Assembly: GCA_016176785.1 (NCBI GenBank)
Contig: JACOWN010000005.1
Span: 1,202 to 65,201, forward strand
Direction of reading: 5' to 3'
Length of the DNA stretch: 64,000 bases
From: Parcubacteria group bacterium
Lineage (GTDB): Bacteria; Patescibacteriota; Minisyncoccia; Phycocordibacterales; UBA2135
Shown: positions 1-31,895 of the stretch, in pieces
How the letters are laid out: each line of letters opens with the position of its first letter
Position numbering within the stretch: the first letter of the stretch is position 1
Position numbers and translations under genes: made by a program
The notes under the pieces: generated by a model
What the model saw: only the letters and a program-made list of their open reading frames with translations
Told to the model about the DNA's origin: nothing
Database searches by the model: none

Positions 1-876
1 GAAAGCGTGTTCGCGCGCACCGACGAGATGGTCGCACGAGGAGGAAAGCATTATCGCTCTGATGCGCTCTGCGGAAAAAAGGTTTTTCTGCTTTTTCTTG
101 AACCGTCAACGCGCACGCGCGAATCGTTCGCGGCGGCGGCGCTCGCGCTCGGCGCGTCGGTGCGCTCGCTTGATAACCCGAAGGAAACAATGTCGCTCAA
201 AAAAGGCGAGACGCTTTCCGAAACCGTTTACACGCTCAGCCGCTACTACGACGCCATCGTACTGCGGCAGAGTGAAGCGTATGTGGCGCGCGAAGCGGCG
301 CTCGCGAGCAGTGTCCCCGTCATCAACGCAGGCGACGGCCCCAACGAGCACCCGACGCAGGCGATCCTCGACCTCTATACCGTGAGGGAGTGGCACAAAA
401 AAATTGACGGGCTCACGGTGCTTATTGCGGGCGACCTTATGTACGGACGCACGGTGCATTCGCTCGTCTACGCGCTTTCGCTCTACAAAATAAAAAAACT
501 CATTTTCGTTCCGCACCCCCTTCTTCCTCTCCCGCGGCAAGTGCAGAAATACGCCGAACTGCACGGCATCCCTTGTGAGGAAACGGACTGCTTCTGGCGC
601 GCGGTTCCCGAGGCGGACGTCATTTACCAGACGCGAGTGCAGAAGGAGCGGCTAAAAGACGAAGCGGTTGCCGCCGATAGCGCCCCGAAGATAGATGAAC
701 ACATTCTCGCGGTAACAAAAAAGGATGCCTGCATCCTTCATCCACTCCCGCACGGCGGCGAACTCGCTCGCACGGCGCTTGAAGACCCGCGCACGCTCTG
801 CTTCAGCGCGCAGGAAGACAACGGCCTCTTCACGCGCATGGCGCTCCTTGAAATGATTTTTGAGCAGACGAACTGA
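1..876 (+). CDS. pyrB: Aspartate carbamoyltransferase catalytic subunit (5' end outside window)
   Basis: STRTR carbamoyl-phosphate motif, HPTQ and HPLP motifs typical of ATCase rather than OTCase. Only ~30 aa precede STRTR, so the true start lies upstream of the window. TGA stop at 874-876. Confidence 0.82.
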   Translation, partial: ESVFARTDEMVARGGKHYRSDALCGKKVFLLFLEPSTRTRESFAAAALALGASVRSLDNPKETMSLKKGETLSETVYTLSRYYDAIVLRQSEAYVAREAALASSVPVINAGDGPNEHPTQAILDLYTVREWHKKIDGLTVLIAGDLMYGRTVHSLVYALSLYKIKKLIFVPHPLLPLPRQVQKYAELHGIPCEETDCFWRAVPEADVIYQTRVQKERLKDEAVAADSAPKIDEHILAVTKKDACILHPLPHGGELARTALEDPRTLCFSAQEDNGLFTRMALLEMIFEQTN

Positions 877-936
877 TACAAAACATCCTACCCAAAAGGT
901 AGGTTTTTTGTTCCGATGCGGCGCAGTACCGCGCCG

Positions 937-1200
937 CTACGCAACTCGCCTCGTTAAGCGCACCAGATTTGATTTTTTCCGCGCGGCGGTGTTTTTTTTG
1001 AAAATACCGCGCTTCAGCGCTTTGTCAATCGCTTTATAGGCCTCGGGGATAAGCCGCTCCGCTCCGGCGCGGTCGTTCGCCTCCGTCAATTTGCGCATGC
1101 GCCTTACGATATCGCGCACCGCCTTTCTCCGGCGGTCGTTCACCTCCCGTTTGCGCGCCGCCGCGCGGAGCGCTTTTTTTGCCGACGATGTAATGGCCAT
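937..1200 (-). CDS. rpsT: 30S ribosomal protein S20
   Basis: 87 aa basic protein, N-terminus MAITSSAKKALRAAARKR and overall Lys/Arg-rich alpha-helical composition typical of S20. Confidence 0.88.
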   Translation of the reverse strand: MAITSSAKKALRAAARKREVNDRRRKAVRDIVRRMRKLTEANDRAGAERLIPEAYKAIDKALKRGIFKKNTAARKKSNLVRLTRRVA

Positions 1201-1295
1201 AGATAGAGGGAAGTATAGCCATTTCGCTTAAAAATGCAAGGCGGCAGATGACCTGCGCGGTTTAAAAACGGCTTCCGGTGCGCTATCATGGAACC

Positions 1296-1868
1296 ATGAT
1301 CGCTCACCTTGAAGGCATCGTCTTTCATAAGGATTTATTGTACCTTGTCCTTGAAACGGGGGGCGTGGGCTACCGTGTCTACGCCACTCCCGAGGTTCTG
1401 GGGGAAGCGCGTGTGGGCGCCTCCTATGCACTGTGGACGCATTACGCCGCCAAAGAAGAGACAACGGAACTCTACGGTTTTCGCACGAAAGAAGAGCTTG
1501 ATTTCTTCGGCCTTCTTCTCGGCGTTTCCGGCATCGGCCCGAAATCCGCGCTTGCCATTCTTTCGCTCGCTCCCGTTGAGACGCTTGCGAAAGCGATCGC
1601 CGCCGATGACACGGCATACCTTACCAAGGTCTCGGGGATCGGGAAGAAAACGGCTGCAAAAATCGTCCTGGAACTCAAAGAAAAGGTTGCCGCCGCGGAA
1701 GAAGAGGGAACGGCGCTTGGCCGCAGAGAAACGGGAGACGCGCTTGAAGCGCTCGCCGCGCTCGGCTATCCGCTCAAAGACGCGCGGGATGCGCTCCGTT
1801 CAGTCGGCGAAACGGCCCGCGGAACGAATGAGAAAATAAAAGAAGCGCTTAAATTGTTGAGCCGATAA
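1296..1868 (+). CDS. ruvA: Holliday junction branch-migration protein RuvA
   Basis: MIAHLEGIV... N-terminus, helix-hairpin-helix motifs LLGVSGIGPKSALAIL and VSGIGKKTAAKIV, C-terminal RuvB-interaction domain. Track ORF begins at a GTG at 1278; the ATG at 1296 matches the canonical RuvA N-terminus. Confidence 0.88.
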   Translation: MIAHLEGIVFHKDLLYLVLETGGVGYRVYATPEVLGEARVGASYALWTHYAAKEETTELYGFRTKEELDFFGLLLGVSGIGPKSALAILSLAPVETLAKAIAADDTAYLTKVSGIGKKTAAKIVLELKEKVAAAEEEGTALGRRETGDALEALAALGYPLKDARDALRSVGETARGTNEKIKEALKLLSR

Positions 1869-1890
1869 TTTTCCCGCGTTTCATCTCACT

Positions 1891-3174
1891 ATGATTGATG
1901 CCGTACTCTACCGCATAAAAAAAATCATCCCGCCGCGGCTTTTTCGCGCCTTGCAGCCGCTCTACCATTACACTCTCGCCTTCCTTGCGGCGCTCGTGTA
2001 CCGCTTCCCCGCGCGAAAACTTATCGTCGTCGGCGTAACCGGCACGAAGGGCAAAACAAGCGTCATTGAGATAGCCAATGCGATCTTTGAGGCCGCCGGC
2101 TACACGACCGCCGTCGCAAACACCGTGCGCTTCAAGATCGGGAACGAATCGCATGACAATGAGTTCAAAATGACGATGCCGGGGCGCTTTTTTCTCCAAC
2201 GATTTCTGCGCCGCGCGGTCAGGCAAAAATGCAACTACGCTTTTATAGAAATGACCTCGGAAGGGGCGAAACTGTTCCGTCACGCCTTCATTGCGCTTGA
2301 CGCGCTTATTTTCACCAATCTTGCGCCGGAGCATATAGAATCGCACGGCGGCTACGAGGCGTATCGCGACGCGAAGCTCTCGTTCGCGCGCGCGCTTGAG
2401 CGGTCGTCCAAAAAACGCCGCGTTATCGTCGCGAACCGCGACGATAACGAGGGCGGGCGTTTTCTTGCCGTTGACGTGCCGGAAAAGTACCCCTACGGCC
2501 TCGCCGACGGAGAGCCGTATGTCGCCAAAAAAGAAGGGCTTGAGTTCACTTTCCGCGGGCGGCGCATCGCGGCGCATTTATCCGGCGTATTCAACCTTTC
2601 AAACATTCTCGCTGCGGCGGCGTACGCGGCAAGCCAGGGCATCGGCGTTGATACCGTCGCGCGCGCGGTTGAATCGTTCCGCGGCATTCCGGGCCGCATG
2701 GAAAAAATAGACGAAGGCCAGCAGTTCACCGTCATCGTTGATTACGCGCACACGCCCGATTCGCTTGAAAAAGTGTACGAGGTGTTCCAGTCGGCGAAAA
2801 AAATATGCGTTCTCGGAGCGGCGGGGGGCGGCCGCGACGCGTGGAAGCGAAAGGAGATGGGCCGCATTGCCGGAAAACACTGCACGGAGATCGTGCTGAC
2901 GAACGAGGACCCGTACGACGAAGACCCCGAGAGCATCGTCCGCGCCGTCGCGGAGGGTATCGCGCGTCCCGTGTATGCCGTTATCATGGACCGGCGCGCC
3001 GCCATCCGCCACGCGCTTCTCCGCGCAACTGCGGGAGACGCGGTCATTATCACCGGCAAGGGAACCGACCCCTACCTTATGGGCCCCAACAACACCAAAC
3101 TCCCGTGGAGCGACGCGGCAGTCGCGCGTGAAGAATTGCGCGCCGTGCTGATGAACGCTACACTTAAAAGTTAA
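1891..3174 (+). CDS. Mur ligase family protein (MurE-like UDP-N-acetylmuramoyl-tripeptide ligase)
   Basis: P-loop VVGVTGTKGKTS, a Mur ligase middle domain and the DYAHTPDSLE motif shared by MurE/MurF-type ligases. At 427 aa it is shorter than canonical MurE. Confidence 0.7.
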   Translation: MIDAVLYRIKKIIPPRLFRALQPLYHYTLAFLAALVYRFPARKLIVVGVTGTKGKTSVIEIANAIFEAAGYTTAVANTVRFKIGNESHDNEFKMTMPGRFFLQRFLRRAVRQKCNYAFIEMTSEGAKLFRHAFIALDALIFTNLAPEHIESHGGYEAYRDAKLSFARALERSSKKRRVIVANRDDNEGGRFLAVDVPEKYPYGLADGEPYVAKKEGLEFTFRGRRIAAHLSGVFNLSNILAAAAYAASQGIGVDTVARAVESFRGIPGRMEKIDEGQQFTVIVDYAHTPDSLEKVYEVFQSAKKICVLGAAGGGRDAWKRKEMGRIAGKHCTEIVLTNEDPYDEDPESIVRAVAEGIARPVYAVIMDRRAAIRHALLRATAGDAVIITGKGTDPYLMGPNNTKLPWSDAAVAREELRAVLMNATLKS

Positions 3175-3188
3175 TCGGCATTCTATAC

Positions 3189-4121
3189 ATGAAATTTCTC
3201 TCCGGTTTTCTTTTCGTACTCCTCGTGCTCTGGGTTGCGTGGTTTATGACCGGCGGCCCCACGCGCGAGTCCGCGTGGAGCGGCCCGTTCCTTTCTCCGC
3301 CATCGCCTGTCGGCCCGGGCGGAACGTACGGCACGGAATCCAATGGTGACGGCGCGGCGGAAACCGTTCCGCCGGAAGTCGCTGACATTCAAGAAACCCT
3401 GAGGCGGCAGGGATTTGACGAGAATACCGTAGTAAAAACAACGGGCATATCGCTGTTCGGCGACCGCATTTCATTCGGCGGTTTTCCGCCGACCGGAGCG
3501 AGGGATGCGAGCGAAGAATATCTGGAGGTCCGCGCGTCGTCCAACAACAAAGAGCCGATCAATATCTCGGGGTGGCGGCTCAAAAGCATCGCTACGGGGC
3601 ATGAGGCGACGGTCGGCCAAGGGGCGTACCTTCCCCGCTCCGGAAAGGTTAACACCGAGCAGCCGATCTTTCTTGCGCCCGGAGAACGCGCGTACGTCGT
3701 GACCGGTTCCTCTCCGGTCGGCGTCTCCTTTCGCCTCAATATCTGCTCCGGTTATCTCGGACGATTCCAGACATTCGTCCCCTCTCTTCCCGCCGATTGC
3801 CCGCGGCCGGAAGAGGGATACCCCGACAGCGGGACGCCCGCATCCGACAAGTGCCTTGATTACCTGGAAACCATCAACCGATGCTCGGCGCACATAGCGG
3901 CGTTGCCGCTCTCGCTTGCCGACAATCCATCGTGCCAGGATTACATTTCCCAATACGTCAATTACAATGGGTGCGTTGACCTCTATAAAAATAAAGCCGC
4001 CTTTTACAAGCCGGAGTGGCGCGTCTATCTCAAAAAGACGCAAAAACTCTGGAAAGAAAGCAGGGAGATCATCGTCCTCTACGACACTGAGGGAAAAATC
4101 GTTGATTCAATTTCATACTGA
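3189..4121 (+). CDS. Secreted/membrane-anchored hypothetical protein with lamin-tail-like (LTD) segment
   Basis: N-terminal hydrophobic helix FLFVLLVLWVAWFM. Central ISGWRLKS...GERAYVVTG block resembles the LTD fold motif. C-terminal Cys-rich region. Confidence 0.45.
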   Translation: MKFLSGFLFVLLVLWVAWFMTGGPTRESAWSGPFLSPPSPVGPGGTYGTESNGDGAAETVPPEVADIQETLRRQGFDENTVVKTTGISLFGDRISFGGFPPTGARDASEEYLEVRASSNNKEPINISGWRLKSIATGHEATVGQGAYLPRSGKVNTEQPIFLAPGERAYVVTGSSPVGVSFRLNICSGYLGRFQTFVPSLPADCPRPEEGYPDSGTPASDKCLDYLETINRCSAHIAALPLSLADNPSCQDYISQYVNYNGCVDLYKNKAAFYKPEWRVYLKKTQKLWKESREIIVLYDTEGKIVDSISY

Positions 4122-4161
4122 CATCTCCGGAGGGCAGAGCGTGGCGGGTGTTCCCTGTTTT

Positions 4162-4644
4162 TTATACGTCAAGAAATCGGAATAAAATGATGCCTGCGGC
4201 GACGGAGACGTTGAGCGACTCTTTTGCGCCGCGCATGGGGATCTCAATAACGGCATCGCAACGCAGACGAACCGCGCGCGAAAGCCCGCGCGCTTCGTTG
4301 CCGAACACAAAAGCGGTCTTGGAGCGCGCCCGCGCTTTTTTATAATCAAGGGCGCGTGGCGCCCGCTCAACGGCAACGCAGTAATACCCGTCTTTTTTGA
4401 GTTCGCGAAGAAGCGCGCCGATATTCTCCCGCGTTTCCCACGGCACCGCTTTCTCTGCGCCCAGCGCCGTTTTTGAAATGTCCTTGCGCGCCCTCCCGAA
4501 TCGGTCAACCGGCGCGGGTGTGTAGCCGGAGAGGTATATCTTTGAAATGCCAGCTGCGTCCGCCGTCCGGAATATCGCCCCGACATTGTAGGCGCTGCGG
4601 ACATTATGGAGCACCGCGACGGCGTGCGGCTTTTTCGGTTTCAT
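4162..4644 (-). CDS. SpoU/TrmH-family RNA 2'-O-methyltransferase
   Basis: HNVRSAYNVGAIFRTADAAG and the FGNEARGLS...IPMRG...SLNVSVAAGIILF SPOUT knot motifs. Start set at MKPKK (codon at 4642-4644), which matches the ~160 aa size of TrmL/TrmH minimal enzymes. The track ORF extends to 4803. Confidence 0.75.
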   Translation of the reverse strand: MKPKKPHAVAVLHNVRSAYNVGAIFRTADAAGISKIYLSGYTPAPVDRFGRARKDISKTALGAEKAVPWETRENIGALLRELKKDGYYCVAVERAPRALDYKKARARSKTAFVFGNEARGLSRAVRLRCDAVIEIPMRGAKESLNVSVAAGIILFRFLDV

Positions 4645-4741
4645 GGCATTGAGCATACCATGGGCGTTTCGTAGCCCAAAGAGAAACAGCCCCTGGCTTC
4701 CCTTGTTTTTTATCGCGCCCCCGCATGGTATACTTTCTCCT

Positions 4742-5101
4742 ATGCTAAGCGTTTTTCCCGACCTTTTGACCTTTGGGCTCCTCGCGCCGGTCATTATCCG
4801 CATTTTTGTTGGGGCATTGTTTGTTTTGAGCGGCTGGAACGGTTGCCGTCGACTTTTTCAAGAAAAAAACCGAAAGGGCGCTTGGTATATGCACTGCGCG
4901 GTGAGCGCCGTTTCGCTTATTGCGGGGATGCTTGTGTTCGTGGGGCTTTTCACTCAACCGGCGGCGCTCGTTCTTGCGGTTATTTCTCTGGCGCGCGTCC
5001 GCGACAAAGACGACCGCCTTCTGTATCTCCTCTTATTCGCCATGGCGCTTTCGCTCCTCTTTTCAGGCGCCGGCTTTTTCGCGTTTGATTTGCCTCTTTA
5101 A
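4742..5101 (+). CDS. DoxX-family small membrane protein
   Basis: ~120 aa with 3-4 predicted TM helices (LLAPVIIRIFVGALFVLSGW, AVSLIAGMLVFVGLF...) typical of DoxX. The internal ATG at 4742 was chosen over the track start 4643 to leave a divergent promoter region. Confidence 0.5.
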   Translation: MLSVFPDLLTFGLLAPVIIRIFVGALFVLSGWNGCRRLFQEKNRKGAWYMHCAVSAVSLIAGMLVFVGLFTQPAALVLAVISLARVRDKDDRLLYLLLFAMALSLLFSGAGFFAFDLPL

Positions 5102-5185
5102 TTTAATCGGAAGATGTTGGTTGAGGCGAGCATGCCAGCCCAAAAAGTTGAAAAACCATGATTTTGTGGTAGTATTTTCGCATAG

Positions 5186-5258
5186 CCGCCCATAGCTCAG
5201 TTGGTAGAGCAGCTCCCTTTTAAGGAGAGGGTCGCAGGTTCGAATCCTGCTGGGCGGA
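5186..5258 (+). tRNA. tRNA-Lys (anticodon TTT)
   Basis: Manual cloverleaf: acceptor CCGCCCA/TGGGCGG, D-stem GCTC/GAGC, anticodon stem GCTCC/GGAGA with one mismatch, loop CTTTTAA (U33, TTT, A37), T-arm GCAGG-TTCGAAT-CCTGC, discriminator A. No encoded CCA. Confidence 0.82.
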
Positions 5259-5328
5259 CAAAAGGAGGTTGGTACGATCACGCAGTCAGGAGAGAAATAC
5301 CGCCTTACAAAACAAGAGGTCTCCTCGG

Positions 5329-5354
5329 TTATCCACTTATCCACAGTATCCACA
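5329..5354 (+). promoter_or_regulatory. Cluster of three tandem DnaA-box-like 9-mers (TTATCCACT, TTATCCACA, gTATCCACA)
   Basis: Read directly: ggTTATCCACTTATCCACAGTATCCACAac. Two are perfect or near-perfect matches to the TTATCCACA consensus. They lie in a 430-bp non-coding, partly AT-rich spacer. Confidence 0.5.
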
Positions 5355-5683
5355 ACTTGCACAACGGGTGGGGCACGACGTATACTACAAGCAGACCTTG
5401 AAAATTGTTTTCAGGGCAACGCTACGCCTTCGATAGGCGGAACAAATCGGCCTTTTGAAAAACATTTTCGGTTCTGTTCTTTTTGTGTTAGTACAAAACA
5501 ATATGACATAGCACTGCTCGTTCGTTTAGTTTAGGGATTTTTCTCCTCCCTAACACCGAAGCCCGCCATTTTTTTCTCCTCGGCGGGCTTCATTTTGTCC
5601 AAAAAACAAGAAGTCCCGCCCGCAAAGCGGGACGCCTCTGTTTTTTGAGGGTCTCGCACCTGGTTTGAGCAAAAAAATAAGAC

Positions 5684-6415
5684 CTATATCCTCAAAACAA
5701 ACTTTTCAAGCGCCACGGGGAGCGTGTCGCCGCCTTGCCGCACCTCGTGATAGGCGCGAACGAGGTCGGAAGAGAGTTTTTTCAGCTCATCTTCCGTATA
5801 TTTTTTCATACAACTCAACGCTTTTCGGAGAACAAAGGGCGGGAGGCGGAGCGCGGAAACGGCACGCGCGCCCCGCGTCTGCGCTTGTTTCACCGAGCAG
5901 AGCGTTTTAACCTGCCAAAACAAAGCTCCGTGAACCGCTTCCGGCTCTTTACCGTCCCTCCAGAGCGTTTGGAGCGTTACCCACGCCGCCCGCCGATCCC
6001 TTCGCCCCACCGCATCGGTCAGAGAAAAAACGGCGCGGTCCCGCGGCGCCGCGGCAGGTTCTTCTCGCGGCTCCCATACTTTCTCGGCATTGCGCGCCAA
6101 AACGGCAAGCATCTTTCGCGGCAAAGCGTTCTCGCACACGACGAAAACCGCCGGCGAAGCGGCAAGCAGTGCGGCGTTCTCCGCAATGAACGAAGCGGCG
6201 TCGTCGTTTTGAAAAACGTCATGAAGCACGACGGTGCTTGACGGCTCAAAGAGGCTCGAGGATCGCGCCCGTTCTTCAAGCGCCGCCACCGAAACGGAGT
6301 CGCCGTCAAAAGAAAAGAACGGCGCGTCCGGCTTTTTTTTGCGGAGGGCGTCAACAAAAGCGCGCTGTTGCGCTTTTATTTTTGGGGAGTCAAAGCCCGT
6401 GAAGAGATAAAGCAT
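5684..6415 (-). CDS. holA: DNA polymerase III delta subunit
   Basis: N-terminal MLYLFTG clamp-loader delta signature. Length and helical C-terminus are consistent with HolA. The terminator hairpin GTCCCGC-ccgcaaa-GCGGGAC plus a T-run lies just downstream on the minus strand (5615-5650). Confidence 0.68.
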   Translation of the reverse strand: MLYLFTGFDSPKIKAQQRAFVDALRKKKPDAPFFSFDGDSVSVAALEERARSSSLFEPSSTVVLHDVFQNDDAASFIAENAALLAASPAVFVVCENALPRKMLAVLARNAEKVWEPREEPAAAPRDRAVFSLTDAVGRRDRRAAWVTLQTLWRDGKEPEAVHGALFWQVKTLCSVKQAQTRGARAVSALRLPPFVLRKALSCMKKYTEDELKKLSSDLVRAYHEVRQGGDTLPVALEKFVLRI

Positions 6416-6503
6416 ATTCCTATTGTAACGCTGTCAAGTTCCGAGGCAATACGGGCGTGTGATACCGTTAGACGAGGAATGAGAACTTTAGCGGGAGCCC
6501 GCG

Positions 6504-6995
6504 ATGGTTTTTGCGAGAGCCGTGTTTTTTGTCATCTTGTTTTTTCTGCTTGGTTCGTGCTCAACGGTGCATAATTACACGAACGGCTGGGAAGCCGAGC
6601 TCGCGGACAGGACGGCTGTCATACGAAAAACAACGATGGAGGAAACGGTCCGCATATGCAATTACCGTTTCAAGATCGGCGCTTTCCCACCGCTTGTCTT
6701 TCTCGGCGCATGCACGGCGTGGGGCGATTCATACGACGAGGGATTGCCCGATATTGAAGTCATCATTTCCGATTGGGATTTTTTGAAACACGAGTTGTAC
6801 CAGGCGGCCGTTGACTGGGTCAACGTCGGCCATCGGGACCTTGTAATGACAGAGTGGCCCGCCGAAGCAATCTTCCTTGAATCTGAAGCGAGCGCGGAGG
6901 GTTTTGAAAAACTGTGGTCAACGCTCAAAGCATACGACAGGCAGGATTTTATCGTTTCGTTTGTGAAACCTCCGGAGCATCCCCTTCCTCCGTAG
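6504..6995 (+). CDS. Hypothetical exported protein (possible lipoprotein)
   Basis: Signal peptide MVFARAVFFVILFFLLGSCS with Cys after a hydrophobic core. No recognisable catalytic motifs. Confidence 0.4.
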   Translation: MVFARAVFFVILFFLLGSCSTVHNYTNGWEAELADRTAVIRKTTMEETVRICNYRFKIGAFPPLVFLGACTAWGDSYDEGLPDIEVIISDWDFLKHELYQAAVDWVNVGHRDLVMTEWPAEAIFLESEASAEGFEKLWSTLKAYDRQDFIVSFVKPPEHPLPP

Positions 6996-7016
6996 GAAGC
7001 ACGCGGCTTGTGGTCT

Positions 7017-9410
7017 TCATGAGCCGCTTTTTTGGTGCGCGCGCCACGCTTCCATTTCCCCCCAATTTTTTCCAACCGACGCATCGGCGACGAGCGGAAC
7101 ATCGTTTTCAATAACGCGCTCCATCGCGCGCTTGACGGTCGGCACGGCCTTGTCCACGGCGTCTTCCGCGACTTCGTAGAGCAACTCGTCGTGCACCTGA
7201 AGAATGAGGAACGCTTTGCCGTGCAGGTCGTTCTCCAGAAGCGCGGCGTCCGCGCGCACCATTGCGAGTTTTACAATGTCCGCGGCGGTGCCTTGTATCG
7301 GCGCATTGACCGCCATGCGTTCGGCGGCGCTTCTGATGTACGGAATCCTTGAATTGATGCCCTCAAAGTACCGCCGCCGCCCGAAAAGCGTCTCCGTATA
7401 CCCGCGCCGCGCCGCCTCCGTCTTCAGCGTTTCAAGGTATGCCGCGACTCCGGGGAACTCGCTGAAATAATTATGGTAAAAATGCTCCGCTTCTTCGCGC
7501 GTGCCGCCCAGATTTTTCTGCAGACTGGAAACCCCCATGCCGTAAATGATGCCGAAATTGATGACCTTCGCCTGCCGCCGCATGTCTTTCGTTACGGCGT
7601 CCTGCGGAACGCCGAATACGCGGGATGCGACCGCGGCATGCACGTCCCTGCCTTCCTTGAAAATGCGCGCCAAGTCCTTGTCGCCAGAAAGCATCGCAAG
7701 CGCGCGGAGCTCAATCTGCGAATAATCAAGCGCCACGAGCCGAAATCCCGCCGAAGCGATGAAGGCGCGCCTGATGCGCGCGCCGCGCTCTCCTTTGACG
7801 GGAATGTTCTGCATGTTCGGATTCTCCGACGCCATGCGCCCCGTCGTCGTGCCCGCTTGGAGAAAGGTGGTGTGGAGGCGGCCCGCCGCATCAACCGCGG
7901 CGGGTATGGCGTCAAGGTATGTTGAGACGAGTTTTTGCAGCTCGCGGAACGAGAGAATGTCGGGAATAACGGGGTGAGCTCCGCGCAATTTCAGAAGCTC
8001 CGATTCGCGCGTTGAACGCTGTCCGCCCTCCGTTTTCTTGAGACCTTTCGCGGTGAGCCCCAGACGGTCAAACAAAACTCCGGCAAGTTGTTTCGGCGAG
8101 TTGATGTTGAAGCGGGCGCCGGCATGTTTCCAGATTTTCTGTGCCAGCGCATCCAGTTCTTTGTGGTAGTCGCGCGAGAGCGCCTTCAGGTACGGGACGT
8201 CAACGAGAATGCCGCGCTTTTCCGCGGCGCGAAGGAGAGGAATAAGAGGCAATTCAATGTCGCGGTAGACGCGAAGCAAACCGCGCTCCTCAAGTTCGGA
8301 CGTGAGTTTCACGCGCGCCTCGGTAAGCGTGTCGGCGCGCGCGTATCTCAAGACGTCTTCGCGCGACGGAGTGGTGAGGTCCGAATTGATGAGCCAGAGC
8401 GCAAGCGCGAGACGCGCGATTTCCTCGCGGTCCGGCTCTCCTTCTCCGGATGATGCCGCGGGGGGAGATTCCGCGCCGGCGCTTTTCCGCACGCGGTCCA
8501 CCAACGCGCGAAAATCAAGGTCTTGGAAAAGACGGGTGACATTGTCGGGCGTGAACGACTCCCGCCACGATGCGCGCGGAAGCGCAAAAGAGATCGGCGT
8601 ATCGCGGCGGATAGAAGCGAGCGTTTTGGAAAAGAGCGCCTCTTCTTCGCCCTCTTTAAGAAGCGCAGTAACGCGTTCTTTGACCCCTTTCTTGAGGAAC
8701 GCCGCGGGATTTTTTCTCAACGCCGCATACACGCGTTCAACGGAGCCGAACAACTGAACGAGCTGCGCCGCGGTTTTTTCGCCGATGCCGCGAATGCCGG
8801 GGATGTTGTCCGACGGATCGCCGCGAAATCCCTTGAAATCGGCGAGGTACTTCGGCGCAAATCCGAAACGCGCCTTGACCGCCTCTTCGTCATAGAGAAT
8901 GGTATCGGAAATGCCTTTTTTCAAGGTGTATACGCGCACGCGCTTGCCGTCAACAAGCTGGAGCGTGTCCATGTCGCCGGAGGCGATGATGATCTCAAGG
9001 TCGCCGCGCTCAAGCTGTTTTTTCATCTGCGCGACGATGGTGCCGATAACGTCGTCCGCCTCAAAACCCTCTTTTTCATAGAGGGGTATGCCGAATGCCG
9101 TAAAGATGTCGCGCGACCGGTTCATCTGGTGCACGAGCGCTTCATCGGCCGCCGGCCGCGTCGCTTTGTACTTTTCATACGCCTCGTGGCGGAATGTCGG
9201 TCCGGGCAGGTCGTAGCATGCGGCAAGGTAGTCGGGCGAAAGGTCCTGAATGATCTTGATGAGCATTGCGGAAAGCCCGTAGAGGCCGCCGGTCGGCTCG
9301 CCTTTGCGCGACGAAAAATCCGGCAGCGCGTGATATGCGCGGTGGAGTATCGCATGGGCGTCCAAAAGCACGAGGCGTTTTTTCTTTTTTTTCTTCGGTT
9401 CTTTACTCAT
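7017..9410 (-). CDS. polA: DNA polymerase I (5'-3' exonuclease + polymerase domains; no obvious 3'-5' exonuclease motifs)
   Basis: N-terminal FEN domain (LLDAHAILHRAYHAL, GIPGIRGIGEKTAAQL). Polymerase motif A (DYSQIELRALA), motif B (RRQAKVINFGIIYGMG) and motif C (LQVHDELLYEV). 797 aa is Taq-like in size. Confidence 0.92.
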   Translation of the reverse strand: MSKEPKKKKKKRLVLLDAHAILHRAYHALPDFSSRKGEPTGGLYGLSAMLIKIIQDLSPDYLAACYDLPGPTFRHEAYEKYKATRPAADEALVHQMNRSRDIFTAFGIPLYEKEGFEADDVIGTIVAQMKKQLERGDLEIIIASGDMDTLQLVDGKRVRVYTLKKGISDTILYDEEAVKARFGFAPKYLADFKGFRGDPSDNIPGIRGIGEKTAAQLVQLFGSVERVYAALRKNPAAFLKKGVKERVTALLKEGEEEALFSKTLASIRRDTPISFALPRASWRESFTPDNVTRLFQDLDFRALVDRVRKSAGAESPPAASSGEGEPDREEIARLALALWLINSDLTTPSREDVLRYARADTLTEARVKLTSELEERGLLRVYRDIELPLIPLLRAAEKRGILVDVPYLKALSRDYHKELDALAQKIWKHAGARFNINSPKQLAGVLFDRLGLTAKGLKKTEGGQRSTRESELLKLRGAHPVIPDILSFRELQKLVSTYLDAIPAAVDAAGRLHTTFLQAGTTTGRMASENPNMQNIPVKGERGARIRRAFIASAGFRLVALDYSQIELRALAMLSGDKDLARIFKEGRDVHAAVASRVFGVPQDAVTKDMRRQAKVINFGIIYGMGVSSLQKNLGGTREEAEHFYHNYFSEFPGVAAYLETLKTEAARRGYTETLFGRRRYFEGINSRIPYIRSAAERMAVNAPIQGTAADIVKLAMVRADAALLENDLHGKAFLILQVHDELLYEVAEDAVDKAVPTVKRAMERVIENDVPLVADASVGKNWGEMEAWRAHQKSGS

Positions 9411-16010: not shown

Positions 16011-16190
16011 AGCCCGTTCCGTTTTCCACAACATCTTCGCGCGCCCTCTTGCGCAAAAAAAATAATCTGATACAAATAGTTGGTGCGTTTGAACCGCCTC
16101 GCTTTGCGTTACCCGAACGGCGGGAACGACGCGATCGTTTTAGGTCGTCACATTACCACCTTAGGGTTTTCATGCGTACGCAAACCCTCT

Positions 16191-20521: not shown

Positions 20522-21619
20522 TTATGTGTTGAGCGGCATGACCAGTGCGGTAAACGACCGGTCGCCGACGTTCCGAACCACCACCGGCCGCGCTTCGCCG
20601 TTACACTGCAGCGAAACGCTGTCACTCGCGACCGACTGGAGACAGTCGGCAAGATACCGCTGATTAAAACGCAGCGTAACCGGTTCTCCGGAGAGCGCCG
20701 CGTCGAGAGAGACGGAGTGTTCGCCGATATCGGCGTTTTTTGAGGCAATGGTGAATTGCTTGGCGGACGGGTCTATCGTGAGCACGACCTGGTTGAATTT
20801 ATCCGCGAACAAATGCGACACCTTAAGCGCGTTAACGAGGTCTTGCTTCAACACGACCGCGTCCGTCGTGCTGGTTTTGGGAATAATTTGTTTGTAGTCG
20901 GGGAAAACCCCGTCAATCAAGCGTGACGTCAGGTATACCCCGTCATAGTGGAACGATATTTGATTTTTATCGCTCCGTATCATTACATCGCCGTTTTTAT
21001 CTTCAAACACGCGGATAATTTCCGCTACGTTTCTAAGGGGAACAAGAATTGAGAGGTCTTCTTTGTTGCCCTGAGACTGGATTTTCTTCTCAGATAAACG
21101 AAAAGAGTCGGTCGCGACGAATGTGCTGTATTCGGGATTGAGGGAAATGAAAACACTTGATATCTCAGGTTTTATGTCCGACGTTGATGCGCTGTACCAT
21201 ACCGATTTTAAGCCGTTCAAAAGCGTTTGAACGGGAAATGGGGATGTTTTTTCCGCTGATACAACGGGAAGTGTCGGAAAATCCTCGTACGGAAACCCTT
21301 TTATCAAAGAATTGTTTTTGCGGGTTTTTACAGATAAATTACCTTTTTCCTCCTCAAGAACGATATCATCTTCATTTATGTACGAGAGAAGGTTATTAAG
21401 AAGGTTCCCGGGAACGGCAATAATGCCTTCTTTTTTCATTTTCACCGGAACTTCAAATTCAATACCGATATCAAGGTTTGTTGAACGCACTTTTAACACG
21501 TCATCGCTTGCCAAAAGAAGGATGGTGCTCAAAATAGGCAGAGAAAGATTCTTTCCTGTCATTCGTTCCGCTCTTGAAACGGCATATTGCAGTTTATTTT
21601 TTGAGACGCTTATTTTCAT
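20522..21619 (-). CDS. dnaN: DNA polymerase III beta sliding clamp
   Basis: Three-domain clamp, N-terminus MKISVSKNKLQYAVSRAERMTGKN..., 365 aa, immediately downstream of dnaA. Confidence 0.9.
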   Translation of the reverse strand: MKISVSKNKLQYAVSRAERMTGKNLSLPILSTILLLASDDVLKVRSTNLDIGIEFEVPVKMKKEGIIAVPGNLLNNLLSYINEDDIVLEEEKGNLSVKTRKNNSLIKGFPYEDFPTLPVVSAEKTSPFPVQTLLNGLKSVWYSASTSDIKPEISSVFISLNPEYSTFVATDSFRLSEKKIQSQGNKEDLSILVPLRNVAEIIRVFEDKNGDVMIRSDKNQISFHYDGVYLTSRLIDGVFPDYKQIIPKTSTTDAVVLKQDLVNALKVSHLFADKFNQVVLTIDPSAKQFTIASKNADIGEHSVSLDAALSGEPVTLRFNQRYLADCLQSVASDSVSLQCNGEARPVVVRNVGDRSFTALVMPLNT

Positions 21620-21877
21620 AATAATAAAAAATATTTATATAAAAGGATTTTTATTATGATATATCTGTTGATATGTAGATAAGTGGGATTATTTTTACCA
21701 AATTATGCATTTTTTGAACGATTTATTTTTTATATCCTGTTGAAAATATGTGTATAAAAAACATTCTGTATTTTGAAACAACAGGATAATTTATTTTTTC
21801 ATATTATAAAAAATTTTTTTCAACACAGTATCAACAGAAAAAAGTTTCTTATGCACACACTTACGCACAGAAGGAAA
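21620..21877. promoter_or_regulatory. Candidate replication origin / DNA-unwinding region in the dnaA-dnaN spacer
   Basis: 258-bp strongly AT-rich spacer in a 60% GC genome. DnaA-box-like TGTaGATAA (21674-21682) and TTATCCtgT (revcomp at 21781-21789). Inverted CTGTTGAAA/TTTGAAACAACAG repeats. Confidence 0.45.
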
Positions 21878-23254
21878 TTACTGCTGTTGCGCGAACAGAG
21901 ACCGTATTCGTTCCAACTCATCCACAAGAACTGTATCTTTTTTAAGGTCGTTTTTTATTTTGTCGCATGAATGAATAACGGTTGTATGGTCACGTCCGCC
22001 GAGGCGCTGGCCGATGGTCGGGAACGAAATACTCAGATCCTCGCGAAGAATGTACATAATGATTTGCCGCGGTTTTACGATCTCTTTTTTTCGCGTCTTC
22101 TCATAGATGGTTGATTTTTCAATGTTATAGAACTCCGACACGACGTGCACAATATCTTCAACGGAGAGCGTTTTTCTCGGTTTCTCGTTGTTTTTAAGGA
22201 GTGTTTTAACTTCAAGCAAGGCAAGGTCCCGATTTTTGAGCTGCGCTTGGCATACGAGGGCGTTTAAAAGACCTTCAAGCTCCCTGATGCTCCCCTTTAT
22301 GTTTGAGGCGATATATTCAATGATCTCGTCGGACGGGCTAAAGTTGATGTGGCGTGACTTTGTCTTCAAAATAGCGACACGTGATTCAAAATCGGGGTCG
22401 GAGATATCAACTATCATCCCGGCGCCGAACCTGGATTTCAGCCGCTCCTCAAGATTTCCAATGAAATTATAATGCTTGTCCGAAGAAAAAATAATCTGCT
22501 TGTTGTTGTCATACAGCGTGTTGAAGAGATGGAACAGCTCGTCTTGCGTCCCCTGCTTCCCCGAAAGAAATTGAATGTCGTCCATGATAAAAACGTCATA
22601 CTTCCGGTATTTTTCTTTGAAAACGTTGATTTTATTGGCTTGGACGGATGTAATGAGGTCAAGATAGAATTTTTCCGAAGTAATATAGAATACTTTCTTG
22701 TCCCCGTACATCTCTTTAATTTTGTTGCCCGTCGCCTGGAGAAGGTGCGTCTTGCCGAGTCCGGTGCCGCCGTACACAAAGAGCGGGTTGTAAACCGAGC
22801 CGACACTCTTCATGATCGCTTGCGTCGCGGTGTAGGCAAGCTCGTTGAACGGCCCGACAACGAACGTGTCAAACGTATAACGCGGATTCAGATTGTCATC
22901 CTTGTTGATATACAGGTCTTTGAGAGGGAGCTCGCCGTAGAGCTGCGGCGCCGATTCCGCAAAGCCGGGCTTTTGCTGTTCGGTTTTTGAAATAACGATA
23001 TAGTCAATGCCGCGTATGTTTTCGCTGATCATGCGGAGCGATTTGAGGATGAATTTGTGGTACTTGTTTTGAAGCCACTCTTTAACAAACCCGTTCGGCA
23101 CGCCAAGATATACGACGCCGTCCGCCTCTTTGACGATAGAAGTGTTTTTGAACCATGTCGTAAAATTTGCCCGCGAAACGGCGCGTTCAATGTCCGCAAG
23201 AGCCGCATCCCACAACTGTTTGGTGTCGGAGATGTTGTGTTCTTGTTCTGGCAT
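21878..23254 (-). CDS. dnaA: Chromosomal replication initiator DnaA
   Basis: AAA+ Walker A GGTGLGKTHLLQATGN, Walker B IFIMDDIQFL, sensor/box VII, C-terminal DnaA-box binding HTH (DHTTVIHSCDKI). Confidence 0.93.
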   Translation of the reverse strand: MPEQEHNISDTKQLWDAALADIERAVSRANFTTWFKNTSIVKEADGVVYLGVPNGFVKEWLQNKYHKFILKSLRMISENIRGIDYIVISKTEQQKPGFAESAPQLYGELPLKDLYINKDDNLNPRYTFDTFVVGPFNELAYTATQAIMKSVGSVYNPLFVYGGTGLGKTHLLQATGNKIKEMYGDKKVFYITSEKFYLDLITSVQANKINVFKEKYRKYDVFIMDDIQFLSGKQGTQDELFHLFNTLYDNNKQIIFSSDKHYNFIGNLEERLKSRFGAGMIVDISDPDFESRVAILKTKSRHINFSPSDEIIEYIASNIKGSIRELEGLLNALVCQAQLKNRDLALLEVKTLLKNNEKPRKTLSVEDIVHVVSEFYNIEKSTIYEKTRKKEIVKPRQIIMYILREDLSISFPTIGQRLGGRDHTTVIHSCDKIKNDLKKDTVLVDELERIRSLFAQQQ

Positions 23255-23299
23255 GTTGGTGTGATGAATGAAAAATTTTTAGCGAGCGTCTCCGGCGAG

Positions 23300-23420
23300 A
23301 ATGCATTTCCTTTTATCCAATTATATAGCACGTTCCACGCGATGAAACTTGTTAAAAGTGCAATAGTATGTTGATAATCTGTTTATAAACTGTGGACAGT
23401 GTTCATACGCGCATCCAGTT
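23300..23420. promoter_or_regulatory. dnaA upstream region with DnaA-box-like 9-mers
   Basis: TTATCCAAT, TGTtGATAA and TGTGGAcAG-type matches read in 23305-23400. Divergent from rpmH. Confidence 0.35.
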
Positions 23421-23461
23421 CCGTTTTGACTTTGCCTGATTTTGTTATACACTCAATACTA

Positions 23462-25639: not shown

Positions 25640-26881
25640 CTAGCGTTCGGGGATTTTTAAGCTCCACAACGTGCCGTCGCGTTTGTTCGTGAAGAAGAAA
25701 TATGTTCCATCCGGGTCAAGAAAAGGATTCGTGACGTCAACGGTCGCGCCGCCGAACTCGCGCGGAACGGCAAGCAGCGCCGCTTCGCCGGTCTCCGCGT
25801 CAATTTTCCATATAACGTCGTCAAAAAACATCGCTCCTTGGTACCACTCGTCGGGGAATGCTCCGTCCGGCACAACCCCGGGCGCTCCGCACAGGAGCGT
25901 AGACGAATTGCCGCCGCGCCAGACGCATTTCTCCGGCAGTGTAATGACGGGAAAGGGCTCCGACGTCGCCTCTTTGCGGCGGAAAAGGAAGGTTTCCAAA
26001 GTCCGTCCCGCGCTTGAGGAGTAGAGCACCGCGTCTCCTTTCGGCGCGGAAAGAGTCAAAAGTCCGGAAACCGGCCCGAGTATTTTCTCCGTCCTGCCGG
26101 TCTGCGGATTTAAAAAATAGAGGATTCCTCGGAAGCCGCTTGCCGCTTTGGTGGTGAGGGCTACCGCATCCTTATTGACCCACTGCGTCGTCCATTCGCG
26201 GACCGGCATGTCAAACACCTGACGCGGCCGCGCGCCGTCAAACCGCGTAACGGTTCCAAGCGCCGATATCCCGAACTCGGTAACGGAGAAAAGCGCGTCC
26301 GCATCCGGCTGTGCCGCAAGGGAGGTAATGCCGTCGGCGAGAAACACTCCGTCAAGTTTGCCGAGTTGCTGCGCCGCGGGCTCCGCGGCGACGATCTGCG
26401 CGGAAAAGCTCTTGATCACGTCGTTCGCATCCAAATAACGAGCGACGAACCGCGCGCCGCCGCTTTGCCACACGGTTTCATAAATGCCGGGCAACGTCGT
26501 ATTCGTAACGCGCACGCGTTCGTTCGTTTCAAGATTGACATCAAACACGTTCCCCGAAGCGCGGTCAACGTAGCGCGCATACAGCGCCTTGTTTCGGGTA
26601 ACCGTTGTTGCGCCGGCTATGGGCGCGCGCGTCAGCTGGCGAAGCTCCGGTACCTCCCCGTCCCCGAGCGCGGTCTCATCCGCCGCGGTTCCTTCTTCCG
26701 CCCCCCCCAACGGACGCCCGAACGAAACATCCTGCGGTGGCGCGCCGAACGGCAGGAAATCGCGGAGCGTTTCAACCGTCGTCTTTCCCGTGTCGCGCGA
26801 AATGTAATATGCCGCGCCGAAAAGCCCTGCGGCAAGCGCCACTATGGTGAAGGTGATTATGGCGATGGTTTTTCGGGTCAT
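25640..26881 (-). CDS. Secreted beta-propeller-like hypothetical protein (N-terminal TM anchor)
   Basis: Start at MTRKTIAIITFTIVALAAGLF (codon 26879-26881). Repetitive beta-rich sequence reminiscent of TolB/PD40 propeller. Last gene of the minus-strand T4SS-like block. Confidence 0.4.
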   Translation of the reverse strand: MTRKTIAIITFTIVALAAGLFGAAYYISRDTGKTTVETLRDFLPFGAPPQDVSFGRPLGGAEEGTAADETALGDGEVPELRQLTRAPIAGATTVTRNKALYARYVDRASGNVFDVNLETNERVRVTNTTLPGIYETVWQSGGARFVARYLDANDVIKSFSAQIVAAEPAAQQLGKLDGVFLADGITSLAAQPDADALFSVTEFGISALGTVTRFDGARPRQVFDMPVREWTTQWVNKDAVALTTKAASGFRGILYFLNPQTGRTEKILGPVSGLLTLSAPKGDAVLYSSSAGRTLETFLFRRKEATSEPFPVITLPEKCVWRGGNSSTLLCGAPGVVPDGAFPDEWYQGAMFFDDVIWKIDAETGEAALLAVPREFGGATVDVTNPFLDPDGTYFFFTNKRDGTLWSLKIPER

Positions 26882-26924
26882 ATTTTTGCGTCGGGTAAAA
26901 AGTCCGCGGCAGCGCAGTGCCACG

Positions 26925-27806
26925 CTATCTGGTTTGCAGAGGGATTTCGCACGCCGTTCGTCCGCCCGTGGCCGATGTGATTGCTCCTCCCTTTTTTGCG
27001 CACTGGTCCTCAAAAGATTTTAGGATTTTTGATTGAAGCGCACGCCGATCCGCCGCCGACGCGTTCTTATATTCCGGGGTTGCATAAAACAGGTTTACAT
27101 CAAGCACCCCGTCTACGCTTGTTCTGCGCACCTGTGCCAAACGGTTCTCCGAGGCATTTGGCGCGGTCACTGTTTTTTGCAGAAGAAGATCGGATTGTGT
27201 GGGTACAAGAACCAACTCTTGAAGCGTGATTTTCGGTACAACGATGCCGAGGTTCAGAAGATTCGGATTGACGGTGTTCAAAATAAGCCACGAGCCAAAA
27301 GCAAGCAAAAGCCCCCAGACGGCCGCCTGCATACGGTTCACGGCGGCCTTTTTCGTGTCAAACGCTTCGCTCAAAAGATATTCGGTGCCGCCCCAGACGA
27401 TCATCAAGACCGCAAGAATCCCTGCGGCGCCGATGACGAACTGAAATATGCGTCCCAAATATATTCCGAATGACGCATCCCCCGTCGCAACCTCTCCTAT
27501 GTCGCCGATCGGGGCAAGAAGCTTATAGCTTTTGCCGAAATCGCCGAACTCATCACTGCCGATCACCCGCGTTCCGCCCGAAGTCGGCTGACCGACATTT
27601 ACCGCGCCCCCAGTGCCTTGGACGGGCGGGGTAACGTCGATCGGGTCACCAAACTCATCAACTCTCTCCGTCCGCGTGTCTGTCGGGTCTCCAAATTCGT
27701 CCACCGCGCCCGTTTGCGCGTAAGCAAAAGGCATCGCGCCTCCAAGCGCCGCGAACATTACTGCGGCAGTCAACCCGTATGCGAAAATGTTTTTGAGCGA
27801 TGCCAT
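26925..27806 (-). CDS. Candidate pilin-like membrane protein with signal peptide, three DEFGD repeats and two TM helices
   Basis: Signal peptide MASLKNIFAYGLTAAVMFAALGGAMPFAYAQ. Repeats VDEFGDPTD / VDEFGDPID / SDEFGDFG. Hydrophobic pair IFQFVIGAAGILAVLMIVWGG and AAVWGLLLAFGSWLILNTVNPNLL, an arrangement like VirB2/TrbC pilins. The assignment is an inference. Confidence 0.4.
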   Translation of the reverse strand: MASLKNIFAYGLTAAVMFAALGGAMPFAYAQTGAVDEFGDPTDTRTERVDEFGDPIDVTPPVQGTGGAVNVGQPTSGGTRVIGSDEFGDFGKSYKLLAPIGDIGEVATGDASFGIYLGRIFQFVIGAAGILAVLMIVWGGTEYLLSEAFDTKKAAVNRMQAAVWGLLLAFGSWLILNTVNPNLLNLGIVVPKITLQELVLVPTQSDLLLQKTVTAPNASENRLAQVRRTSVDGVLDVNLFYATPEYKNASAADRRALQSKILKSFEDQCAKKGGAITSATGGRTACEIPLQTR

Positions 27807-27819
27807 GAGCGCGAGAGCG

Positions 27820-28818
27820 TTAGAGCGACGGCGATTGTCCGAATGTTATGAAAAGCGATGCGGCGGCGCGCTGGAAAATGCGCGCGGCATTCGTGATGCT
27901 GACCCCGACGCGTGCGGAGCCGCTTGTCCCGCCTTCGCTCCGGAACACGACCTCGGTGTCTTTTTGGGGCGGCAGAAAGGGTTCGTCATTCAATTCCCAC
28001 GAGTATTGGAGACCGTTCGCGCGGTCATCGCGCGAAAAATAATACGGCTCCACGCGCACCGTGAGCTCGTTTTCAGCAAGCGGTTCCGTGCCGCCAAGCG
28101 AGCGTTCGTAGAGCACTCCCAACAGAGGGTGACGGCGGTAGAGAAGCACGCGCGGCTCAACCGCGGCAAGCCGTATCGTCCGTTGTGCCGTAAAGGTCCC
28201 CTGGAGCGATGATGCTTTCACGGTGATCTCCGCGTCAAAGAATCGTTCGGGGCCGTCAAGCGCGAGCGTTTGCTTGCCGAAGCCGGAATCACCCCCAAGC
28301 ACGCGGCGGTTTTTTGACCAGGTGTAAATGACATCGTTGTCGCGTACGCGCGTTCCGTCGGCAAGAACGAAGTGCGGAAAAGCGGTAATGACGAGAGCGC
28401 TCCCCGACGACGGCAGCGCTTTTCCGCGGTAGAACGGCGGCGTGTACGTGTCCGCTTCCCACAGAAGGTCAACGTCGGCGGGACGGAGCGTAATCTCGCC
28501 CACGACCCTCCTCCCCTCGGGCGAGGTCGCGGTTGCGCTTATGCGGAGAGAACTTCCGAACGCGCCCGTGGTAACCGTGAGCGTTTTTATTCCGCGTCCT
28601 TCAGCCGCGCGCCGTCCGCCGACCGTCCAGGAGACGGTGGAACGGTTCAGGTCAACCGAGGACGTATCAAGCGTAAGCTTCACTTCGGTGCGCGCGCCGG
28701 GGAACTCGGGCGTCGCCGTAACGGTGAGAACGCCGATGTTCGGAACTTGCGCGTGAACCGTGGCGTAAAACGCGAGCGCGAATGCGGCGATGCATGTTTT
28801 GGCGAAGAACGACATCAT
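27820..28818 (-). CDS. Secreted hypothetical protein (T4SS-like locus)
   Basis: Signal peptide MMSFFAKTCIAAFALAFYATVHAQ. Beta-rich. 4-nt overlap with the VirB4 gene end. Confidence 0.4.
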   Translation of the reverse strand: MMSFFAKTCIAAFALAFYATVHAQVPNIGVLTVTATPEFPGARTEVKLTLDTSSVDLNRSTVSWTVGGRRAAEGRGIKTLTVTTGAFGSSLRISATATSPEGRRVVGEITLRPADVDLLWEADTYTPPFYRGKALPSSGSALVITAFPHFVLADGTRVRDNDVIYTWSKNRRVLGGDSGFGKQTLALDGPERFFDAEITVKASSLQGTFTAQRTIRLAAVEPRVLLYRRHPLLGVLYERSLGGTEPLAENELTVRVEPYYFSRDDRANGLQYSWELNDEPFLPPQKDTEVVFRSEGGTSGSARVGVSITNAARIFQRAAASLFITFGQSPSL

Positions 28819-30677: not shown

Positions 30678-30695
30678 ACGCCCCGCGCGTTCGGC

Positions 30696-31352: not shown

Positions 31353-31422
31353 GCGAATTTTGAATTATGAAACGGGAATTACGAATTAAGAATACAGCGA
31401 CCGCCGCCACGCACCACGACCC

Positions 31423-31857: not shown

Positions 31858-31895
31858 GCGAAATCTCCAAAAAATTTTGGAGATTTCGTATGAGA
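31852..31895. repeat. Palindromic hairpin CGAAATCTCCAAAA-aa-TTTTGGAGATTTCG (extended TCTCATG...TATGAGA) overlapping the PrgI-like start codon
   Basis: Read directly. 14-bp perfect stem at 31859-31888. Confidence 0.6.

Follow-up and report, generated by a model that had tools for sequence, protein, structure and literature searches.

A head-to-tail array of DnaA boxes behind tRNA-Lys in a Parcubacteria genome is probably a DnaA-binding site outside the replication origin

What is an uninterrupted row of DnaA boxes doing about 16 kb away from dnaA in a member of the Parcubacteria? The row in question lies at positions 5329-5354 of the window, by which we mean the whole 64,000-nucleotide stretch of DNA analyzed here (Parcubacteria group bacterium, assembly GCA_016176785.1, contig JACOWN010000005.1), in a spacer between the genes for tRNA-Lys and holA; we refer to it as the 5.3-kb array. 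An earlier reading of this DNA from its letters alone (hereafter, the sequence-only reading) had pointed out the tandem consensus boxes and offered two explanations: either the true origin of replication (oriC), relocated or split, or a partner of its DNA unwinding element is located here, or else the site is a datA/DARS-like place of DnaA titration or reactivation. The results described below lead us to regard as probable the second of these in a general form, namely that the array is a lineage-specific DnaA-box landing pad outside the origin, where DnaA would bind cooperatively, gate local transcription and be sequestered.

The three boxes were indeed found where the sequence-only reading had placed them, and dnaA (21878-23254, minus strand) is 16.5 kb away. 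On the plus strand, 5329-5354 reads TTATCCAC/TTATCCACA/GTATCCACA, with all boxes co-oriented and head-to-tail. Box 1 (TTATCCACT, 5329-5337) has one mismatch to TTATCCACA, box 2 (5337-5345) is a perfect consensus, and box 3 (GTATCCACA, 5346-5354), which again has one mismatch, directly abuts box 2. The T at 5337 belongs both to box 1, as its last letter, and to box 2, as its first, so that the start-to-start spacing is 8 and then 9 bp. A weak fourth unit, ACTTGCACA, follows at 5355-5363 on the same strand; it has three mismatches to the relaxed consensus TTATNCACA, keeps only the TNCACA core and overlaps the -35 element of a predicted promoter.

Such an arrangement clearly exceeds what is expected by chance. 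When arrays were defined as head-to-tail boxes of no more than two mismatches spaced by 8-12 bp, seven of them were found in the window vs. 0.39 expected, all seven being intergenic, and none of 200 simulated sequences contained an array of three or more boxes. Boxes with at most one mismatch numbered 19, compared to 6.3 +/- 2.6 in shuffles, and this excess stems from three loci only: oriC, the 5.3-kb array and one more array at 60.0 kb. The 5.3-kb array contains the only perfect TTATCCACA in the window that has a near-perfect box on both sides, and according to Tandem Repeats Finder it is the only repeat with a period of 8-12 bp and at least three copies in the 64 kb. The 26-mer was found to be identical in seven independent Logan assemblies of the same population, which come from several sequencing runs, thus indicating that the array is no assembly artefact.

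Of the eight Logan contigs (L001-L008), seven end inside the tRNA-Lys gene (window 5199-5230), and L008 ends at 5538. The breaks inside tRNA-Lys probably reflect a gene shared with other members of the community. The sole mismatch among these contigs, T to C at 5201, is likewise situated at a contig end inside tRNA-Lys.

The spacer that houses the array comprises 424 bp (5260-5683) and is non-coding, just as the sequence-only reading had it: no credible open reading frame (ORF), Rfam family or pseudogene remnant was found there. The small-ORF search and six-frame translation of the spacer revealed no coding potential; comparison with Rfam gave nothing at the gathering score in the whole window and nothing credible at E <= 10 in the spacer, where the best match reached 27 bits vs. 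the 43-bit gathering score and mostly covered the terminator. An att-like repeat of the tRNA 3' end, the mark of an integrated element, was sought and not found. Transcription converges on this locus, since DoxX and tRNA-Lys(UUU) (5186-5259, plus strand) are read rightward, the latter from a promoter revealed by the scan at 5148-5175 (plus strand; TTGAAA, 16 nt, TGgTAGTAT), while holA (5684-6415, minus strand; DNA polymerase III delta in a short 243-aa form bearing Pfam DNA_pol3_delta_C) is read leftward. No intrinsic terminator was found between tRNA-Lys and the boxes, and RNA folding of 5256-5400 gave no structure (z = +1.6), so that the read-through from tRNA-Lys would meet anything bound at the array. 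The unstructured character of this segment also fits a protein-binding DNA site.

On the other side of the boxes, a predicted sigma-70-type promoter (5357-5386, plus strand; TTGCAC, 18 nt, TATACT or, alternatively, TGCACA, 17 nt, TATACT) starts 3 bp past box 3 in the same orientation as the boxes and matches the consensus in 9 of 12 positions. In 750 bp, two sigma-70-like sites were found vs. 0.5 expected, the other one being the well-placed tRNA-Lys promoter; the chance of a promoter falling next to the array is about 1%, a rough estimate judged after the fact. The non-coding, AT-richer body of the spacer (5387-5557, plus strand), in which the 50-bp GC content drops to 26% at about 5453, may represent either the trailer of the tRNA or a non-coding RNA of about 200 nt. 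This segment is followed by a perfect 10-bp hairpin and ATTTTGT at 5558-5591 (plus strand), terminator-like for rightward transcription, and then by a predicted bidirectional terminator at 5613-5633, which would close both holA on the minus strand and any rightward transcript.

As to the tRNA gene itself, ARAGORN called it a suppressor tRNA ('tRNA-Stop', anticodon tta). We rejected this call as a register artefact: the gene aligns without gaps with tRNA-Lys(UUU) of six relatives, and the anticodon loop CTTTTAA is invariant among the aligned genes, which adjoin the same DoxX gene in the relatives. The earlier tRNA-Lys label is thus correct. The tRNA has a G27-A43 mismatch (standard numbering).

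How might the array work? Given that the origin is in its usual place beside dnaA (see below), the 5.3-kb array is most likely an extra DnaA site of a known kind. We suppose that DnaA, by means of its conserved domain IV, would bind this compact set of abutting boxes, three strong and one weak, with high affinity and fill them head-to-tail. Domain IV carries the PRQ and GGRDHTTVIH motifs, which, in view of the structure of the E. coli domain IV on DNA, should include the box-reading residues. Over the aligned stretch of domain IV, the same motifs are present in the B. subtilis DnaA (8BTG, 335 bits overall), and the canonical box should therefore be recognized. Cryo-EM data show that two DnaA protomers of one oligomer can occupy a co-oriented pair of neighboring boxes simultaneously (PMC10721633). 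Once formed, the DnaA complex would stand in the path of the tRNA-Lys read-through and thereby gate transcription of the spacer. It would also cover about -39 to -64 of the co-oriented predicted promoter, with the weak fourth box reaching into the -35 element. The transcript predicted from this promoter would be a non-coding RNA of about 200 nt, antisense towards holA, with its end at the 5558-5591 hairpin or at the bidirectional terminator. Moreover, a site only 16 kb from oriC should be duplicated right after initiation and would thus add to the sequestration of DnaA; box density near the origin is known to favor DnaA titration (PMC12371093).

Several observations weigh against the landing-pad reading. 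The array has only 3-4 boxes vs. 4-12 sites in the high-affinity regions of B. subtilis, and the 8-9 bp register may block the simultaneous filling of all sites. The predicted promoter is only a 9/12 match and has no gene downstream. That the units are nearly identical would agree with slippage in the recent past, which could be neutral. Finally, a box cluster at the syntenic tRNA-Lys/holA loci (L022-L025, L009-L013) was absent in every relative examined, so that purifying selection on the array is not demonstrable.

The relatives are, in turn, rather distant. The block dnaA - ruvC - T2SS ATPase - tsaE - polA - holA is syntenic in them, and between tRNA-Lys and holA they carry two genes, one DHO_dh-like and one other, remnants of which were sought in the spacer and not found. 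The nearest identities are 40% for holA, 55% for PolA and 68-70% for DnaA, so low that no relative is close enough for an alignment of intergenic DNA. The related loci, 284 kb in all, contained just three arrays, each of them weak and composed solely of 2-mismatch boxes, which corresponds to the chance level.

Among the other explanations, the one that survives best overlaps with the landing-pad reading. It holds that the main function of the array is that of an operator through which DnaA controls a small RNA or antisense transcript beginning at about 5393, with no role in titration, and we regard it as a real, if tentative, possibility. It is favored by the promoter-like site directly downstream of the array and co-oriented with it, and by the segment 5390-5602, whose folding exceeds that of shuffles (z = -3.9) and which terminates in a hairpin plus U-rich tail; however, the minus strand folds equally well. 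TATACT follows the 60.0-kb array just as it does the one at 5.3 kb, but a comparison of the two downstream regions, made in search of a shared small RNA, revealed no similarity. Furthermore, the spacer matched no Rfam family, the 27-bit hit mentioned above falling short of the gathering score. Viewed as a DnaA-regulated promoter, the locus offers a promoter-like site 3 bp past box 3, but no gene or known RNA was found downstream of it.

The operator explanation, like the landing-pad reading, gains further ground from metagenomes. We scanned metagenome contigs for three TATCCAC cores in the 8-9 bp register, which yielded at least 120 loci. In 30 of the 120 matches listed, the triple box lies between murC and a gene with a DnaB_2 domain (dnaD/dnaB-like), which is followed by a dnaI-like loader gene. 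In this class (examples are L125, L033 and L148), the array is always co-oriented with the operon, which starts 75-230 bp downstream, the three boxes are in many cases followed by an inverted fourth one, and the encoded proteins are 32-100% identical. Since dnaA was present in none of the 120 matches listed (and dnaN in only one), none of the 30 loci lies beside dnaA. This indicates that abutting, co-oriented triple boxes recur outside origins as a type of operator, and the array of the murC class looks like a widespread DnaA operator on a helicase-loader operon, as far as gene order and box layout can tell.

Many contig names of the murC class mark human-gut metagenomes. Many other matches of the scan were set aside, being either Gly/Tyr-rich coding repeats or DNA of a eukaryote-like character with genes for SWIB, caspase and XPG; among the matches listed, the murC class alone proved informative.

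A less likely explanation is that the array is a neutral by-product, i.e., a chance box tripled by replication slippage, or else a site for some other DNA-binding protein. Its units are more alike than typical oriC boxes, chance alone should, by our calculation, yield about 0.5 perfect boxes in 64 kb, the array has no counterpart in relatives, and, as just mentioned, many metagenome matches to the same pattern proved to be coding repeats or unrelated DNA. Nevertheless, the only short-period repeat of its kind in the 64 kb has the initiator consensus as its unit, and we estimate the chance that a random 9-mer repeat would match the box at about 0.002. A neutral by-product is also disfavored by the second, non-identical 3-box array in a non-coding gap at 60.0 kb, by the intergenic position of all seven arrays, and by the fact that the 5.3-kb array is fixed and invariant across samples from several sequencing runs. 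We therefore consider this explanation unlikely.

Slightly less credible still is the proposal that the triple box behind tRNA-Lys acts as a replication-status switch, with DnaA blocking the read-through and controlling a short non-coding/antisense transcript aimed at holA-polA. If this were true, the locus would be a datA-like hub that links tRNA transcription and replication without IHF, and, as an element of replication control outside oriC, it would be the first to be described in this uncultivated group.

The resemblance to datA deserves attention, since the sequence-only reading regarded a datA/DARS-like site as one of its two options. In its general form, as a DnaA-binding regulatory site outside the origin, this idea agrees with the explanation that we favor; in its strict form, which implies a catalytic regulator of DnaA acting through datA-like ATP hydrolysis or DARS-like ADP release, it appears very doubtful. 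The E. coli datA is located near oriC, just downstream of the tRNA-Gly operon, where DnaA binding attenuates the read-through (PMC10950094), and its essential boxes share one direction (PMC5742627). Likewise, the 5.3-kb site is non-coding, lies near oriC, has a tRNA gene immediately upstream and bears co-oriented boxes. However, the minimal datA comprises 183-262 bp and has an IHF site between boxes 2 and 3, for which HU is no substitute, and it works by stimulating ATP hydrolysis (PMC5742627). Here, the boxes abut within 35 bp, so that a bending site would not fit between them: the gap between boxes 2 and 3 is 0 bp, and no scan for the IHF consensus was made elsewhere in the spacer. As for DARS1 and DARS2, their core likewise consists of three close DnaA boxes in non-coding DNA, but box I in DARS faces the opposite way from boxes II and III (PMC5742627), whereas all boxes at 5.3 kb are on the plus strand, so that the DARS core arrangement is absent. 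In addition, the datA and DARS systems have been defined in E. coli and its relatives.

It remains to consider whether the array could be the origin, and for this purpose the neighborhood of dnaA has to be described. The genes dnaN (20522-21619) and dnaA (21878-23254) are on the minus strand, while rpmH (from 23462, plus strand), followed by rnpA, yidD, yidC and jag, diverges from them. The dnaA-dnaN spacer (21620-21877), the probable unwinding half of oriC, contains four head-to-tail arrays (21666-21869); the rpmH-dnaA spacer (23255-23461), the other half, comprises the dnaA promoter and a 3-box array at 23399-23369 (minus strand) with 11-bp spacing upstream of TATAAT. According to the sequence-only reading, the dnaA-dnaN spacer has only degenerate boxes, but the data clearly show the opposite. 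It is the densest box cluster of the window, with four boxes of at most one mismatch and nine of at most two in 300 bp, and two of its boxes, TTATACACA and TTATGCACA, fit the relaxed consensus TTATNCACA exactly. Nor is the GC content lower anywhere else in the window: here it drops to 17-18% per 200 bp and to 8% per 50 bp, compared to about 57% overall.

The same spacer bears the layout expected of a basal unwinding system, which consists of a box or boxes, trios and an AT-rich tract (PMC8287927). We searched for a box of at most two mismatches, a 0-16 bp spacer and at least three trios on the correct strand (PMC8287927). The strand convention was taken from the C. difficile trio sequence and the B. 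subtilis sequence. On the coding strand of dnaN, the box pair TTATCTACA/ATATCAACA (21682-21666, minus strand) is arranged in an 8-bp register; 5 nt past it there are three NTN trios, followed by a 60-bp tract of 13% GC, which ends at the dnaN start codon. In DNA so rich in AT, the trio match is weak evidence; still, this is the only place in the window where a box pair is followed within 5 nt by three or more trios and a tract of this kind. In all four relatives studied in this respect (L026-L029, 63-68% DnaA identity), the 200 bp of lowest GC content are again found in the dnaA-dnaN spacer. A 3-box array ending in TTATCAACA is present upstream of dnaA in L026-L028, and a box pair in the 8-bp register is present in the dnaA-dnaN spacer of L027 and L028. 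Taken together, these features allow us to conclude, as far as sequence can tell, that rpmH-dnaA-dnaN is a conserved two-part oriC of the Bacillus type. As this canonical oriC is intact and kept in relatives, the 5.3-kb site is not needed as an origin.

The GC skew, by which the sequence-only reading had hoped to locate the origin, was of little help at either 2-kb or single-base resolution, and its signal favors neither site: |skew| is below 0.03 in the 5-kb flanks of both the 5.3-kb array and dnaA, and the minimum of the cumulative skew, at 57 kb, marks the edge of a low-GC block. With the skew so weak, the assignment of the origin rests on other criteria, and all the testable hallmarks of an origin are situated at rpmH-dnaA-dnaN. 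The 5.3-kb site has a box cluster, including the perfect TTATCCACA flanked by two near-perfect boxes that is unique in the window, and co-oriented adjacent boxes serve as the platform of the basal unwinding system (PMC8287927; PMC10721633), with the geometry that starts a head-to-tail DnaA oligomer (PMC8287927; PMC6669920; PMC10721633). The lowest 50-bp GC content of its spacer (26%) belongs to the lowest 0.8% of the window, and the skew does not clearly point to dnaA either. However, the trios and AT-rich element of this system, present at 21682-21620 (minus strand) before dnaN, are missing at 5.3 kb: next to the boxes comes a GC-rich block of 17 nt, no run of trios lies within 16 bp of them, and no strongly AT-rich unwinding element was found, the GC content of the spacer never falling below 41% per 200 bp or 26% per 50 bp, vs. 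17% and 8% in the dnaA-dnaN spacer with its higher box density. The dnaA-side layout (a 3-box array upstream and a box pair in the spacer) is kept in the four relatives to the extent given above, whereas the position of the 5.3-kb array is not conserved, and genes converge on 5.3 kb but diverge from the rpmH-dnaA junction. The idea of a true or relocated origin at 5.3 kb, or of a distant partner of a split one, with unwinding at 5.40-5.53 kb, is thus the least probable of all and can hardly be upheld, the more so that looping by distal boxes in B. subtilis has been shown up to 462 bp, not 16 kb (PMC6669920).

Some further observations concern the origin region. The conserved region upstream of dnaA (window 23320-23400; about 9867-9950 in L026, 9882-9960 in L027 and 9892-9970 in L028) consists of the 3-box array, the last box of which is TTATCAACA, followed by the motif AACAAGTT. 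The motif has the form TTTAACAAGTTT in the window, L027 and L028, though not in L026; next comes TATATAAT in the window, L027 and L028, while L026 shows only GATATACT in the stretch read. The dnaN and dnaA genes (20522-23254) have 46% GC and a third-position GC of 0.53-0.59, about 10 points below their neighbors, although the DnaA protein is typical of the Parcubacteria, with 65-70% identity to many others. A DnaA-box-like 9-mer is situated at or next to the stop-codon end of ruvC in the window (16022-16030), L026 (17221), L027 (17208) and L028 (18261). Type IV secretion-like genes (PrgI, TraC-like and TraG/VirB4-like, with TrbL/VirB6 in the window) occupy 25640-36615 of the window, where this block runs against the expected direction of replication; in L026, L027 and L029 (positions 1-7800), such genes directly adjoin the jag-yidC-rnpA-rpmH side of oriC.

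Elsewhere in the window, the second 3-box array outside the origin, TTATACACA/AAATCCACA/TTATCCCCA (60010-60038, minus strand), lies in an AT-rich non-coding gap and adjoins a cluster of parS-like palindromes. Four matches to TGTTNCACGTGAAACA with at most three mismatches were found vs. 0.41 expected, all inside a 600-bp segment of the 59960-60750 region, e.g., GTTTTCACGTGAAACA at 60144, along with more TTTCAC(A/G)TGAAA copies at 59961-60231. This is probably a cluster of chromosome partition sites, 38 kb from dnaA. The surrounding low-GC block (56800-64000) has a strongly positive GC skew, and its genes have 38-50% GC with 0.31-0.61 at third positions, compared to about 57% and 0.65-0.70 elsewhere; they encode YraN/UPF0102, an HD-domain 5'-deoxynucleotidase, a TrmB-like regulator and several uncharacterized proteins, and a Pfam search of the block found no integrase or replication gene. 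One more perfect TTATCCACA stands alone at 37663-37671 (minus strand), between an intrinsic terminator and the TATAAT promoter of a gene for a TSP3-repeat protein; to judge by this position, it may mark a DnaA-regulated promoter.

To our knowledge, almost nothing is known about replication control in the ultra-small, host-dependent Patescibacteria, and our literature search found no paper on DnaA boxes or oriC in this group. The window thus gives a clear picture of one Patescibacteria origin region, with a two-part oriC, arrays 16 and 38 kb off and a parS-like cluster. So far, we know of initiator control by box clusters outside the origin only from E. coli, Bacillus and Streptomyces; if the extra arrays do bind DnaA, this kind of control would reach a deep lineage with very small genomes. 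Origin prediction should also take heed, since the origin is not necessarily where a contig has its best-looking boxes.

Which of the known systems does the 5.3-kb array resemble most? Like the DnaA-box clusters (DBCs) of B. subtilis, it is intergenic, dense in near-consensus boxes and close to oriC (PMC2533591; PMC3245932; PMC4447404), with three boxes of at most one mismatch within 26 bp of non-coding DNA, 16.3 kb from the dnaA-dnaN spacer. B. subtilis has eight high-affinity DnaA regions with 4-12 sites each (PMC4447404), and across the Bacillus group strong DnaA sites cluster near oriC (PMC2533591; PMC4447404). One stable DnaA site of B. subtilis lies between the converging genes gcp and ydiF (PMC2533591), a setting that it has in common with the 5.3-kb site. 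These clusters serve as operators for neighboring genes and jointly restrain initiation (PMC2533591; PMC3245932; PMC4447404), such that the deletion of the six clusters outside oriC leads to early initiation (PMC3245932). In contrast to the B. subtilis DBCs, the 5.3-kb array has a smaller number of boxes, 3-4, in a strictly co-oriented and gapless row; it belongs to the Parcubacteria and is not conserved in relatives. The density measure of Ishikawa relies on four successive boxes (PMC2533591), the fourth of which is weak here.

The murC-class loci share with the 5.3-kb site three co-oriented boxes in the 9-bp register, a location outside oriC and an orientation pointing into a downstream transcription unit; they differ in that a replication-gene operon follows 75-230 bp downstream, whereas nothing coding follows at 5.3 kb, and in that they belong to other organisms. 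On the whole, the 5.3-kb array agrees with the broader, already known class of non-origin DnaA-box clusters.

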